A DNA stretch of 21,064 nt. Source: a virus. Location: IMG/VR virus record IMGVR_UViG_3300046021_000493; one strand, given 5' to 3'. Shown piece by piece: positions 14,902 through 19,237 of this stretch (its first letter is position 1; each line of letters starts with the position of its first letter). Made by a program: the position numbers and the translations under genes. Under the pieces are notes generated by a model. It worked only from the letters and a program-made list of their open reading frames with translations, was not told where the DNA came from and made no database searches.

Positions 14902-15548
14902 TTGACTTCTTGATACTCCATTACTTGGCCCAATAGACCTTGATAAATTTTAGAATAATCTCTATTTAAATTAGGGGTTTTAGGTTCTCCAACCATTCTT
15001 AATACTTTTCCATTGTGGTCAATTTCAAATTGGGCGAAATAAGTCTTCCCAGGGAAAGAAAGGTTATCTCTTAATTTCATAATAACGGTACTTCCTTCTG
15101 CTGGATATTGTAATTCTGGATGTGCAGATGGAGGGAAAGAAGTATATTTTTTTCTAAAAAATTCAGCGATTTCTTCATCTGAATTTAATAATTCTATATC
15201 TGATGGAGCACCATAATCCATGTTTTCATTTTTATCTTTTTGCTTTACATTATCACATGGCTTATGAGGTTCAGCGTCACATTTATCTTTTTCAGGTGGA
15301 AATAATGTTTCTAAAATCATTCTTGTTTCCACTTGAGTCTTTACTAATTTTGTTAATCCATTAAAACTTAAATCTTTATCTATTAAGTTACAAGCGATTA
15401 ATAGTAAAGTATTACACTCGTTGTCATCAAAATGAGGAGTGTCAAAAATCTATACAAAGAAATTATTTATTTCATTAACATCATAGTCTTTATTTAATAA
15501 AGATCTATTTATCTTCAAGATAAAATCTTTTGAATAATAGGATTCCAT
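14898..15548 (-). CDS. hypothetical protein, 1 in-frame TAG, stop TGA
   Basis: 216 codons, ATG 15546-15548 with RBS GGAGG at 8 nt. TAG at 15450-15452. No family recognised. Confidence 0.45.
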
Positions 15549-16954
15549 TTATTATATTCCTCCGTTTTCTTATAAAAAGATAATAATTTAGTCATTTCTG
15601 AACTTAAACATGAATTATCTACATAAGAAAATAAATTTAATTTTTTATATTTTTCAATGCAGAAAATTATTTTTGCTTTTTGCATTTCACATACGGTTTC
15701 ACATGGATAAAAAATTTCTCCATTCTCTTCATACTACGCGCCTAGGCATCCGCGCATACAAAAAGTGTGAAAATCACAACAATCACATTTAGGTTTGGTT
15801 ATTCCGCCAGTTCTCCAAATTGCATTTGCCATCTAAAGATTATTGGCTTCTACGCCAACAATTTTTTTATTAACATCTTTTTTAAATTTTCCTATAATAA
15901 ATTTTTCATAAGACGTTCTGTGGCAAGGACAAATCGCTAAATCTCCTAAGCGAACGCATAACATAACTCCAATAGTACAATTATATCCAAATGAAATTGG
16001 AAGCATTGTATATGGAATATAAGATTCTGTATATGAATTGTCAGGAATTGTTTTTTCATATTTTAAGATATATCTTGCTACTCGATCTAAATCTCCATCA
16101 AAGAATAGTTCAATATCTCTATCAAAAATATAATTTAGCCAGTCAAGAAATTTCTCAATTTTATCATCAGTCCAATCATCATTTCGAACTTCTAATTGCA
16201 TTATCCCACCATATTCATTTTTCCAATTATTAGGATAAATTCGTTGATACATTTTTATCCATTCATCATAATTCTTTTTTTGATACTCAATAGTAGATGC
16301 CGCAATCATAGGATGAAAACCGTAATGATGTCTTACTGCGAATTTTTCAATATTTGTATAATAATTATTATCTTTCACTAAATTTTTGTTATTAAATGGG
16401 CGAGATTGCTAATCAATAACAATTCCATCCATACTAATTGAAAAGCATATAGATACTCCACTCGTTTCAAATAATGCGATATAATTATCTACAATAGATA
16501 TTAACTATTCATTTTCACAAAACGAACAATTAGAAGGGATTACAATTTGTTCAACATTTAGTCCATTTGCAATTCCGTCTAATAATGCTTCAAAAACTTC
16601 ATTACCTAATGGATAACCCCAAATCTCTCCAGAAAATAAATCTAAACGAGGAATATATACTTTTCTTTCTATTAGATAATTAATAAAACTTTTTAAATTA
16701 GAAATTATTTCTTTATTATCTCTAATTTCTTTTGGATAGATCTTATCTCCAAAACGATTAAGATAACAATACTAACAACTTTGATTACAGCTTGCTGTTA
16801 TATATAATTCTAAAAAATATTGTTCTCTTCCGCATCCAATTAAATCTAAAAAATGTCTTTGTTCTTTAGTTGTTTTACTCCATAAAGAAAAAATATCATC
16901 TATCGCTAGCTATAAAACTTGGTTTTGCTCAGATTGAAAAGAACTTGTCTGCAT
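15515..16954 (-). CDS. radical SAM (rSAM) enzyme with a SPASM-type auxiliary Fe-S domain (peptide/protein maturase-like), 6 in-frame TAG, stop TGA
   Basis: 479 codons, ATG 16952-16954 with RBS AAAGGAG at 9 nt. 'ITASCNQSC-TAG-YCY' is the CxxxCxxC rSAM motif with TAG inside it. C-terminus 'GYNCTIGVMLCVRLGDLAICPCH...KPKCDCCDFHTFCMRGC' is a SPASM-type Cys cluster. Confidence 0.6.
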
Positions 16955-18302
16955 ATTCAATATACTCCTTTGCTCCATTAAAAAATAATTTAATAAATCC
17001 AACTTGCGTTAAATATCTTGATCCAGTAACTCCTAAATTATCTCTTACGCAACTAGAAGTTCTATCAAAAATAAAATGAGCAGCTTTCATTGCTTCTTCA
17101 ATATTTATATATTTTTCATCTATCTGTCCCGCTCTTGCATACCAAGTTATCATAGAAGCTAATTCGGTAGTCTAAAATTTTGATTCACTTGTAAAACAGT
17201 CACATTCCTTTTCATATAGTTCATATTCTTTCTCTGTATAAGCGCTATGATTGGAAATTCCTCCATCAAGAAACATTTTAAATTCAATTGTTCTATCAAC
17301 ATTATTAATCTAATCTTTTGCTTTCTATTTATAATCTGCGATTAAATCAACAAATCCATTATGGCAAGAAGAAATTAAATTATAAGGAAGTAATCCTAAC
17401 ATCAATTTTCCTGTACCACAAGTATCACATCCATTAATTACTCCTCCAAAAGGACATGGATGAGAATTAGGATATGGTCTAAAAGGAACAATATTTCTTG
17501 GATATTTAAAGTACTTTTTTTCTGGATCTTCTTCTAATATTTCACAAGCTAATTTACAAAAATTAGCAAAGTTTTTTCCATCCTGAATAGTATGCGGAGA
17601 AGGTACTGCAGTATTGGGATTTGGAATATCAAAACTCCATTGTGGAGTTAAAACATTATCATCTGAAGCTTCTTTATAAAATTCAAAAAATTGATAATAT
17701 TTAATAATATCTTCTTTTGTTTGTAATTTTTCAATAGATGGTCCATCTAAAGTGGGTTTAAAATGAGCAAGGATTCTAACATTTTGGATTCCATCTAATT
17801 TCTATTCAATTGAAGAAATTAACTTTGAAAAATTTTTGCTAAATCTTGCTGTAACATTTTTTCCTCTGTTATTATCATTTATATATGTTGGTCCATCTAA
17901 TGATAACTATAAATCAAATTCAAAATTTCTATTTGGATAATCTTTGAAAATATCTAAAAATGAATATATGTCTTCAACGCAAGTATCTGTCGTAAGATTA
18001 GTAGACATCATAAATCCATTTAAATTAGTATAATAATCTATTGCTTGTCGTATAGTTTTATTTGCTCTTGGAAGACCATAACTGGGTTCTCCTCCCCACA
18101 TTTCTATTCTTTGTAATTGTCCTCTATTTGGGAACATTTTTTTCATAAAATTAAAGAAATAATCAGTTTTCCAAGTATCTTCTAGAATTTTATCTATATC
18201 CTATAAAACAGGCGATTTGTCAATATAACAATACCTACATTTTAAATTACATGTTGCAGTTAGATATAATACACATACATGTCTATCATTTATATTTGCC
18301 AT
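16929..18302 (-). CDS. radical SAM (rSAM) enzyme with a SPASM-type domain (anSME/peptide-maturase-like), 6 in-frame TAG, stop TGA
   Basis: 457 codons. N-terminus 'MANINDRHVCVLYLTATCNLKCRYCY' is a canonical CxxxCxxC. 'LSLDGPTYINDNNRG' matches the SPASM-maturase motif. C-terminal Cys cluster 'HPCPFGG..CDTCGTG'. ATG 18300-18302 with RBS AAGGACGG. Confidence 0.65.
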
Positions 18303-18313
18303 AATTACCGTCC

Positions 18314-19237
18314 TTATGTTGTTGTAATATTGCTATTTGTAACAGTTCCAGAACTTCTGACTGAGAAGTTTCTAAGAGTTGTATTACAAGTATTAGAATT
18401 TCCTCCTAGAAAACTTTGGTTCGTGTTCTAAGTAAAACTTCTTGAAAATCCAAAAGTTGGACTATCTGAAAAACTCTAAGAAAATCCCGCTGCATGGAAA
18501 GAATCACTACAAGTACTAACTGAAAACCCACTAAATGTTGGAGAATTTGTGCAATTAGACTGAGTTGAGAATCCATTCTGAACTTTAGAAAATGTTGCAT
18601 GACTACAAGCGTTTGTATTATTAGTATTGCCTTTTTTATTTGAAAAAGTCGTCCCGGCCGAAAAAGTCGAGCACGCAGTATTCTTAGAGAATCCTCCTTG
18701 AGAGCAAGTTTGTGCAAAACTCAAAGTACCAACATTAGAATTACCATGTTTTGAAAATGATACTGACTAATTGCTCTAATTGGTAAAAGTTCTTGAAAAG
18801 AATGCTTCATTAAAAGTTTGATTACAAGTATGTGAGAATCCTATTACCTAGAAAGTCTCTCCACAAACAGATTGGTTACAACCTGAAAAATTAGAGTTTG
18901 CAGTATTTGAATTGGACGCAGAAACACTATAATTTCCATTAATTGTTTTTAAATCAGATACTAAATTTTCAATATTTACCATATTAGATCCAACTACTGG
19001 AGAACTCTAAGTTGGAGCTGTCATTGGATAGGTCGTCCATAGTCCATATTGTAAAAATGTATCTGTTTTTAAATTATTTAATTTTGTTATAAAATTTGAT
19101 ATATCAGTTGCTTTTATAGGATCTCCAGTTGATTTTGTATCAACTGCAATCTACGGCAATGATTGATTTGAATTATGAGTATTTAAACTCGTTTGTAAAT
19201 CATTTAACCAAGAAGCTTTTACTTGACCTGTTGGCAT
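18314..19237 (-). CDS. Cys/Ser/Thr/Asn/Phe-rich repetitive protein; candidate multi-core precursor of a ribosomally synthesised, post-translationally modified peptide (RiPP), 7 in-frame TAG, stop TAA
   Basis: 307 codons, ATG with RBS AAAAGGAGGG. The C-terminal two-thirds consist of short degenerate repeats, mostly 'x-T/G-F-S' with a Cys every 8-12 residues (GCNQSVCGETF, GFSHTCNQTF, SFAQTCSQGGFSKNTACSTFSAGTTFS, NACSHATFSKVQNGFSTQSNCTNSPTFSGFSVSTCSDSF, GFSRSFT, NSNTCNTT). 13 Cys and many N-x-S/T triplets. Ends 12 nt before the first rSAM gene. Confidence 0.5.

Follow-up and report, generated by a model that had tools for sequence, protein, structure and literature searches.

What does a repetitive protein of 307 amino acids do directly upstream of two radical S-adenosylmethionine (radical SAM) enzymes in a viral genome? 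This question is raised by a locus in the IMG/VR record IMGVR_UViG_3300046021_000493, whose complete stretch of 21,064 nucleotides (nt) is called the window in the following. A first inspection, the sequence-only reading, had proposed that positions 15515-19237 hold a cluster for a ribosomally synthesised and post-translationally modified peptide (RiPP), with the repetitive protein as a multi-core precursor and thioether crosslinks as the modification. Our analysis points to a phage operon, recoded from TAG to Gln, which encodes a protein-sized RiPP-like substrate together with its maturing enzymes and in which crosslinks would be introduced at many sites. We give this reading a probability of about 0.5 and consider it the most economical one. 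That the repetitive protein is the substrate of the two enzymes, here called rSAM1 and rSAM2, seems rather probable to us; what type of crosslink is formed and what becomes of the product we infer.

The recoded operon and its conservation

Under the standard code only short open reading frames (ORFs) are found across 8-20 kb, and reading TAG as a sense codon yields a continuous series of genes on the minus strand. Recoding of TGA or TAA was also tried and gave a poorer ORF structure across this region. The genes of the repetitive protein (18314-19237), of rSAM1 and of rSAM2 are real in this sense, being uninterrupted with TAG as sense, and they contain seven, six and six in-frame TAG codons, respectively. 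In total 35 such codons occur in eight genes spanning 12188-19586, and none in the ten genes checked between 160 and 11430. A TAG at residue 132 of rSAM1 falls on an alignment position where all of the 33 homologues have Gln, which indicates that TAG encodes Gln in this phage. Homologues are located on viral contigs of IMG/VR and on metagenomic contigs of 120-240 kb, and the few matches in species-representative genomes lie on contigs of metagenome-assembled genomes binned as Clostridium, Roseburia and Bacillota. Based on the recoding, these contigs and the binning, the window is part of a TAG-recoded phage, whose host is probably a member of the Bacillota; the TAG-recoded, phage-like element of the sequence-only reading is supported in this respect. 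Neither DNA nor tblastn searches of the INPHARED phages gave a match, and the same holds for scans with single proteins for close relatives in IMG/VR. Recoded codons are confined to late genes in such phages (bioRxiv 10.1101/2021.08.26.457843), a pattern into which their restriction to one part of the window fits and from which late expression of the operon would follow. Four tRNA genes (Cys-GCA, Lys-TTT, Gly-TCC and Tyr-GTA) are present at 8232-9435 and 20215-20302 of the window. The Cys-GCA tRNA is unusually long with 87 nt, and the Tyr-GTA tRNA was not recovered by Rfam at the gathering score. The window has no gene for a suppressor tRNA-CTA.

The functional unit is an eight-gene operon on the minus strand (about 12150-19642), bordered by a promoter-like and a terminator-like site of its own (Table 1). 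The gene pairing on which the originally proposed cluster was built is present, but the unit is larger: in addition to the three genes it comprises the small genes g107 and g216, a fusion of an aldo/keto reductase (AKR) with a ferredoxin-type domain, and the paralogues pA and pB. The close spacing of the repetitive-protein gene and rSAM1 was also seen correctly, although the gap measures 11 nt and not 12 nt.

We examined 20 loci with an rSAM1 homologue, covering 43-99% rSAM1 identity, and sampled family-wide neighbourhoods in about 23 loci. In 19 of the 20 a member of the repetitive protein's family, split by gene calls in some cases, ends 1-33 nt upstream of rSAM1, so that the pairing is not a local accident. 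The twentieth locus (L024) lies on a non-recoded, prophage-like contig with a GC content of 54%, in the order fibre-like protein, rSAM1, rSAM2, g216-like protein, family member (hhalign probability 89.5%), amidase and tail genes; the family member is here four genes away, within the module. The pair is accompanied by rSAM2 and a g216-like gene in most loci examined, g216 being the partner of rSAM2 in 11 loci including the non-recoded L024. AKR, pA and pB are present only in some loci, the AKR-ferredoxin gene being absent in L003, L033 and L024. Reciprocal lookups starting from the N-terminal domain of the repetitive protein alone (n=3) led in two cases, L036 and L037, to the same order of substrate, rSAM1 and rSAM2. 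In L036 these three genes are followed, in place of AKR, pA and pB, by a YcaO protein of 586 amino acids (8133-9893; 114 bits in Pfam, and 79 bits against a cutoff of 75.65 for TIGR00702). To our knowledge, all characterised YcaO roles involve peptide or protein substrates. The co-location of precursor and enzyme that is looked for in a RiPP cluster is thus found in the 11-nt gap, in a common promoter-to-terminator unit and in the synteny of 19 out of 20 loci. The upstream neighbours in the relatives are fibre-type genes, with Mtd_N, CBM_4_9 together with a glycine-rich domain (ALK_LTK_GRD), weak BclA_C and fibre repeats, and the repetitive-protein gene always stands at the end of these tail-fibre gene blocks.

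Two radical SAM enzymes related to peptide maturases

Both enzymes carry the CxxxCxxC motif which in the radical SAM superfamily ligates the SAM-binding [4Fe-4S] cluster within a partial TIM barrel (C18/C22/C25 in rSAM1, C64/C68/C71 in rSAM2), and its residues are invariant in the respective families. The LSLDGP...NR motif is conserved in rSAM1 as LQLSLDGP...NRG. These two motifs had been recognised before; the SPASM-type Cys clusters, which had been assigned to both enzymes, are found in canonical form only in one of them. rSAM2 has seven invariant Cys residues (C334, C352, C398, C401, C407, C411 and C430) in the spacing C334-x10-G-x6-C352, C398-x2-C401-x5-C407-x3-C411 followed by C430, with six residues after the Gly instead of the nominal four. 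This agrees with the 7-Cys pattern of SPASM (TIGR04085), by which two auxiliary clusters are bound and whose hidden Markov model scores 22.2 bits, just below the cutoff of 27. In contrast, rSAM1 lacks the CX2CX5CX3C arrangement. Of its C-terminal Cys residues C295, C313 and C418 are invariant and C249 is present in about 90% of the homologues, and these three invariant residues and one near-invariant residue suggest a single, twitch-like auxiliary cluster. The twitch model NF033640 gives 39 bits on rSAM1 against a cutoff of 170. The two enzymes align to each other with an hhalign probability of 94%.

Structure models were built on two close database twins, of which P0001 is 94% and P0003 99% identical. 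The closest folds to rSAM1 are those of ChlB, a cyclophane synthase and the top match, and of anSME, CteB and TigE, whereas the small-molecule enzymes BlsE, MoaA and DesII rank clearly lower. For rSAM2 the best match in the PDB by sequence is CteB. We do not find a grouping of these enzymes with non-peptide cofactor or small-molecule families, a result which had been named beforehand as one that would contradict a peptide maturase. No PqqD-like domain or RiPP recognition element (RRE) was matched at the N-termini; rSAM1 has no N-terminal RRE, because its radical SAM motif begins already at residue 18, and about 55 residues precede the motif in rSAM2.

None of the specific subclasses for which models were searched includes these enzymes. 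The SCIFF and ranthipeptide models score 24.1 and 19.5 bits (TIGR03974, cutoff 425) and 36.3 and 17.7 bits (NF047865, cutoff 340), and the sactipeptide models RumMC, SkfB and GggB reach 16-26 bits against cutoffs of 300-720. The triceptide/3-CyFE models XyeB, YhhB and GrrM stay at 15.9-24.5 bits (cutoffs 310-450), although ChlB is the top fold neighbour, and the anSME model TIGR03942 gives 27.1 bits with a cutoff of 349. As far as can be judged from its sequences, the system would work like a radical SAM RiPP cluster and yet it belongs to no specific subclass tested.

The repetitive protein and its family

The repetitive protein consists of two different parts, as had been noticed before. In the AlphaFold2 model, for which a 94%-identical twin and a shallow alignment were used, the ordinary N-terminal region of about 110 residues forms three helices (residues 8-24, 43-57 and 83-102) at a predicted local distance difference test (pLDDT) score of 64-84. 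Everything past residue 101 has a pLDDT near 30, the mean of the model being 43, and this tail is predicted to be disordered. The N-terminal domain (N-domain) is a candidate for a leader or docking element, a virion anchor, or both. The protein has no match in Pfam, NCBIfam or PHROGs, nor does a fold search of its low-confidence model give one (best BFVD Foldseek E-value 0.09). Clear homology to a structural family, which would have spoken against a RiPP precursor, was looked for and no named structural family matched.

Residues 101-307 consist to about 49% of Ser, Thr and Asn and include 24 Phe and nine Cys residues, only 14 of the 207 positions being Ile, Leu, Val or Met, with no Met at all. 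The sequence-only reading had described the tail as about 20 short degenerate repeats with 13 regularly spaced Cys residues and many N-x-S/T triplets. Short motifs do recur above the level expected from composition, but there is neither a tandem repeat in the DNA nor a fixed period. The nine Cys residues are separated by irregular gaps of 5 to 41 residues, and the 12 N-x-S/T triplets are not enriched over the 10.0 expected from composition. For [TGS]F[ST] there are 14 occurrences where composition predicts 3.6, and for [TAN]C[STN] seven where it predicts 1.5, numbers which none of 2000 shuffles reached, and F-[ST]-x is found 17 times in the tail (8.3 expected). Phe and Cys share their context, with Thr, Gly, Ser or Ala before and Ser, Thr or Asn after them. 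The tail can thereby be described by recurring [T/G/S/A]-[F/C]-[S/T/N] slots, one every six residues or so; it ends in the conserved motif NFSVRSSGTVTNSN. A reading of the N-x-S/T triplets as N-glycosylation sequons was rejected, since they stay at composition level in the window protein and at 1.19-fold family-wide, and no glycosyltransferase is present. The sulfatase motif C/S-x-P/A-x-R does not occur in the tail.

Comparison with a close relative reveals where the operon varies. The genome L001 is 99.2% identical to the window over 10.3 kb, with 84 nucleotide differences, 32 of which fall into codons 114-251 of the repetitive-protein gene (15 nonsynonymous, eight synonymous, one indel). A second hot spot is g216 with 20 nt (six nonsynonymous, 13 synonymous); these mostly synonymous differences suggest a recombination tract. 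g107 has five nonsynonymous and no synonymous differences, and the other operon genes have 0-5 each. Among nine variants of the repetitive protein with at least 90% identity, 28 columns are variable, and in four of them (178, 190, 212 and 217) Cys and Phe are exchanged for each other. Elsewhere the only substitutes for Phe are Ser and Asn; Leu, Ile, Val and Tyr never take its place. This replacement pattern, together with the shared context, is not that of a hydrophobic core, and the slots filled by Phe and by Cys appear to be equivalent.

A profile search with the N-domain among 1.84 billion representatives found at least 283 clusters (defined at 50% identity) with E<=1e-3, 91 of which reach E<=1e-10. 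None of 74 family members matches Pfam. The family is large, restricted to phages and without a name in Pfam or PHROGs, and is apparently undescribed: a full-text literature search, whose coverage leaves out most subscription journals, returned no description of such phage systems of radical SAM/SPASM enzymes with RiPP-like structural proteins. Common to its members are the N-domain and a tail of 64-364 residues that is polar and of low complexity; usually there is also a short conserved motif at the C-terminus, for instance NFSV[RK]. The question whether the repeats are conserved in homologous clusters therefore has a divided answer. The N-domain and usually the C-terminal motif are kept, but the tails are hypervariable in sequence and in repeat type, with FS-type repeats in the window, SFxxNSSN in L003, xNGxx pentamers in L008 and L013, and TNSTYSDTC nonamers in L010. 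Across 111 family tails the medians per 100 residues are 4.3 for Cys and 7.6 for Phe, Tyr and Trp together. The number of Cys residues per tail ranges from 0 to 22, with none in four tails and two or fewer in 19, and the L003 protein has only three in 364 amino acids; aromatic residues are present in all 111. Relative to shuffles, [GST]-aromatic-[ST] is 1.7-fold and C-x4-C 2.0-fold enriched family-wide. In one member (P0162), going by its predicted gene model, a domain resembling a carbohydrate-binding module (CBM) is fused ahead of the N-domain.

If the protein is indeed the substrate, this would be a large, phage-restricted family matured by radical SAM enzymes that has escaped annotation, because TAG recoding fragments the gene calls made with the standard code and because curated models are reached by no part of the system. 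RiPP-type chemistry would then include substrates of ten times the usual length, and the hypervariable cores with their matched enzymes would amount to a natural library. It would also become a testable question whether one enzyme pair can accept Phe or Cys in the same slot. The product would be a virion appendage crosslinked after translation or else a peptide made by the phage and released at lysis, and in the literature searched we found neither described for these gut phages.

Proposed maturation and rival readings

In known radical SAM crosslinking a carbon radical is captured by the sulfur of a Cys (CteB type) or by an aromatic ring (ChlB type), and the tail is enriched in both of these donor residue types. 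In the mechanism we propose, rSAM1 with its one auxiliary cluster and rSAM2 with its canonical SPASM domain would bind the repetitive protein, mediated by the N-domain and/or the small partner g216. The latter may be a recognition partner, because it varies together with the tail and is found alongside rSAM2 in most loci. 5'-Deoxyadenosyl radical chemistry would then generate many intramolecular crosslinks in the tail. Each would form when a residue carrying a carbon radical reacts with the aromatic ring of a neighbour, giving a link of the cyclophane type, or with the thiol of a neighbouring Cys, giving one of the thioether type, and the floppy chain would become a compact, protease-resistant structure. 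The AKR-ferredoxin fusion, pA and pB would serve as accessory redox or tailoring factors in some lineages only; the fusion may provide electron supply or tailoring redox chemistry. A conserved N-domain in front of a hypervariable tail fits the leader/core logic of RiPPs.

As to what the product becomes, we slightly favour a fibre or whisker attached to the virion over a released peptide. The fibre is suggested by the position of the gene at the end of fibre blocks, the late recoded expression, the C-terminal motif, the CBM fusion and the lack of a peptidase or exporter in the operon, and the released peptide by the YcaO protein, an M28-like peptidase in one clade and the leader/core logic. The structural or adhesin-like protein, which had been mentioned only as an alternative at the outset, is at least as likely, because the gene stands at the ends of fibre blocks and one member has a CBM-like fusion. 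More specifically, a virion fibre or whisker could be stitched by the two radical SAM enzymes in an anaerobic host, with Phe and Cys as interchangeable donors. This proposal is tentative and in its full form rather doubtful. A viral structural protein would then for the first time be seen to mature in the manner of a RiPP, by mixed cyclophane/thioether chemistry on a substrate of about 200 residues and about 30 sites, and the system would be widespread in TAG-recoded gut phages.

Several points weigh against a crosslinked substrate, which is a reading derived from sequence and context. None of the eight operon genes encodes an RRE/PqqD-like domain, a leader peptidase or an exporter, and all NCBIfam maturase models stay at 16-39 bits against cutoffs of 170-855. 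The third of the lookups from the N-domain (L035) led to a family member without an adjacent radical SAM gene. The motif enrichments are inflated by internal repetition, and the exchanges between Cys and Phe are single G<->T changes that amount to few events. Neither Cys nor Phe is individually conserved family-wide, so no single chemistry is implied. Finally, four of the eight genes (g107, g216, pA and pB) have no assigned function and could, together with the AKR, point to a small-molecule pathway. In L035 (6001-7272) a MurA-like gene directly follows the family member, and a prophage boundary or a chimeric contig is possible there.

The small-molecule pathway belongs to a wider alternative. 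Here the repetitive protein would be a low-complexity protein of the virion or of a fibre and would stay unmodified, and the radical SAM enzymes, AKR, pA and pB would lie in the late operon with it but make up a pathway of their own. The target of that pathway could be a small molecule, or else a cofactor, a nucleic acid or a different protein. An AKR-ferredoxin fusion and two Cys-rich paralogues are indeed atypical of RiPP genes, the gene order differs in L024, the protein occurs without radical SAM neighbours in L035, and both the tail-fibre genes around it in the relatives (Mtd_N, CBM_4_9, ALK_LTK_GRD, BclA_C) and the member fused to a CBM-like domain suit a fibre. However, substrate and rSAM1 are the most conserved pair of the module, whereas AKR, pA and pB come and go and are replaced by a YcaO protein in L036. 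Moreover, the fold neighbours of rSAM1 are peptide and protein modifiers, with BlsE, MoaA and DesII at a clear distance, and a tail without a hydrophobic core and with predicted disorder is hard to imagine as a self-sufficient structural element. We consider this alternative unlikely. Variation of the tail could also have a different origin, if it were the variable region of a diversity-generating retroelement or of another targeted mutagenesis and AAY codons for Asn explained its composition. When the window is compared with L001, the differences cluster strongly in the tail; the tail is rich in Asn, and Mtd_N-like fibre genes are nearby in the relatives. But neither the window nor the 8-10 kb around the locus in 10 relatives contains a copy of a template repeat (a single 26-nt match is at chance level), no reverse transcriptase was found in the window, and a variable stretch of about 410 nt with an indel and changes in repeat number is unlike the variable region of such an element, which makes this origin highly improbable.

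There remains the classical thioether RiPP: a multi-core precursor with Cys-to-carbon links, the N-domain as a cleaved leader, and one or more peptides released at lysis. In the PDB no relative of either enzyme ranks above CteB, the SCIFF maturase, and a conserved N-domain followed by a hypervariable core is typical RiPP logic. Further points in its favour are the enrichment of [TAN]C[STN] in the window protein and of C-x4-C (2-fold) in the family, the M28-like peptidase three genes upstream in one clade and the YcaO protein of L036. Yet Cys is dispensable, as the Cys-free and Cys-poor tails and the L003 protein illustrate, and it is swapped with Phe among near-identical (>=90%) variants. TIGR03974, NF047865 and NF040492 give 18-36 bits against cutoffs of 340-855, and the operon holds no RRE, C39 peptidase, ABC exporter or other peptidase. 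In addition, a conserved C-terminal motif follows the variable region, and tails of 64-364 amino acids are far longer than known cores. Such a thioether RiPP is quite unlikely in our view, and the assignment to sactipeptides, ranthipeptides or SCIFF made in the sequence-only reading is not supported, with Cys not conserved, replaced by Phe, and the NCBIfam models below their cutoffs. A tail of [Phe/Cys]-[Ser/Thr] slots fits crosslinking in the sense proposed above better than a thioether-only model, because Cys is dispensable and aromatic residues are not.

Neighbouring genes and comparison with known systems

Table 1. Features of the eight-gene operon and its borders in the window.
Feature	Position	Strand	Remarks
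Terminator-like hairpin, end of preceding unit	19801-19824		
Promoter-like site	19614-19642	-	TTGACT-17-TATAAT with TG extension, 11/12 consensus match only; 28 nt upstream of the first operon gene
g107, 107 amino acids	19263-19586	-	No Pfam, NCBIfam or PHROG match
Repetitive protein, N-domain (residues 1-110)	18908-19237	-	Three-helix model, family alignment
Repetitive protein, tail (residues 111-307) and stop codon	18314-18907	-	Presumed modified region
rSAM1, 457 amino acids	16929-18302	-	CNLKCRYC, LSLDGP..NRG motif
rSAM2, 487 amino acids	15515-16978	-	CNQSC(TAG=Q)YC, 7-Cys SPASM pattern; overlaps the end of rSAM1 by 50 nt
g216, 216 amino acids	14898-15548	-	Helical N-half and small conserved C-terminal domain (IDHxGxV)
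AKR fused to 2x[4Fe-4S] ferredoxin-type domain	13924-14901	-	Pfam Aldo_ket_red E 1.5e-13, Fer4_9 E 1.5e-8
pA, 272 amino acids, Cys-containing, paralogue of pB, accessory	13105-13923	-	No family or PDB match
pB, 306 amino acids, six invariant Cys including NAICPPGC, accessory	12188-13108	-	
Terminator-like hairpin, 17-bp stem and T-run	12150-12186	-	Directly 3' of the last gene, marks the operon end

Like g107, the proteins g216, pA and pB are without a match in Pfam, NCBIfam and PHROGs. The paralogy of pA and pB is supported by an hhalign probability of 99.6%, and a profile search of the PDB with pB returned noise only. That pB is a degenerate radical SAM protein was considered and ruled out (hhalign 0.3%). 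A small gene of 105-130 amino acids is found at the position of g107 in the relatives inspected (L001, L002, L003, L032 and L033), with evident homology only in L001 and L002. Three genes upstream of the substrate gene some relatives encode an M28/M20-like metallopeptidase (L003 5567-6583, also L032, L033 and the start of L002), which in the L003 clade adjoins a 471-amino-acid protein with 20 Cys residues and could be a processing peptidase. The window ends 1.5 kb upstream of the operon, and the metallopeptidase is not visible there. A second module occurs in other relatives (L005 5620-8543; L007 3699-6584), where a protein combines a helical N-terminal part with a tail of about 30 Cys residues, mostly spaced C-x3-C (SCTGLCLSCAGSCISGC...), and a third radical SAM/SPASM enzyme follows two genes after it. 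The N-domain of this (CxxxC)n protein is not homologous to that of the repetitive-protein family.

A conserved intergenic element of 60-84 nt is present eight times in the window, at 1442-1503, 4158-4245, 5874-5961, 7810-7893, 9513-9600, 10896-10957, 10975-11062 and 12056-12143. On the minus (coding) strand it reads TTGA(T/C)(A/T)TTTT ... TATAATATATATAG and resembles a promoter of the sigma-70 type (TTGAYW, about 17 nt, TATAAT). Copies of it stand ahead of most TAG-free or TAG-poor genes, but none of these repeated promoter motifs occurs within the recoded operon; the element looks like an early or middle promoter class distinct from the site at 19642-19614. The TAG-free genes include those for a protein with a cREC_REC and a nucleotidyltransferase domain (160-1017), a major-vault-protein-like protein with MVP shoulder and vault repeat (1665-4148) and a DUF2828/DUF7788 protein (4298-5821; PHROG 850, 'RNA-binding protein'), and this set at 160-5821 is reminiscent of Ro/vault-type RNA-handling sets. 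The gene at 4298-5821 is compositionally foreign, with a GC content of about 0.40 and 17 CAG but no CAA codons, whereas its neighbours prefer CAA. A chorismate mutase of type II (6122-6367) and a transporter of the DASS/CitMHS family (6367-7755) may be auxiliary metabolic genes of the phage; neither belongs to the radical SAM operon, and the transporter is part of a separate transcription unit. Two related PD-(D/E)XK genes (PDDEXK_5; 11529-11975 and 20445-20852), which share a 55-nt stretch at 76% identity (repeat D7), flank the operon, with an HNH gene near (10105-10431), and these genes look like homing-endonuclease-type insertions bracketing the module.

Among the known radical SAM systems the triceptides/3-CyFE (ChlB, XyeB, MicB) have precursors which are short peptides with one to five motifs. 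Unlike these, the system described here is phage-borne, presents a tail of about 200 amino acids with about 24-33 slots behind a folded domain of 100 residues, and allows Cys to take the aromatic position. It differs from the SCIFF and ranthipeptide maturases CteB and PapB in that rSAM1 has no N-terminal RRE and the Cys residues of the substrate are not conserved, and nothing here corresponds to the 45-residue SCIFF precursor with six Cys. In contrast to anSME and QhpD, the latter acting on the gamma subunit of QHNDH, there is no sulfatase or dehydrogenase context, and the scores are 23-28 bits against cutoffs of 349-453. Systems with repeated precursors are represented by the cyclopropylglycine synthases TigE and TvgB and by CefB with a Cys at every fifth position; compared with these the repeats are degenerate and hypervariable here, and no membership score is reached.

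The precursors of the NHLP and Nif11 type possess a conserved N-terminal domain of 70-100 amino acids, followed by a hypervariable core. The repetitive protein shares this order, but not the sequence, and differs further by a core that is 5-10 times longer, by its conserved C-terminal motif and by the lack of a C39 exporter. With phage tail fibres and whiskers it has in common the position at the end of the fibre block, late expression, a conserved N-domain and a hypervariable distal part, although it is not homologous to any named family and its distal part is predicted to be disordered and not a beta-helix or knob. We know of no dedicated radical SAM partners described for phage fibres, and the full-text literature search gave none. 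The combination of substrate size and architecture, about 33 Phe/Cys slots in about 200 residues, the apparent equivalence of Phe and Cys, the restriction to phages and the TAG recoding distinguishes this system from those known so far.

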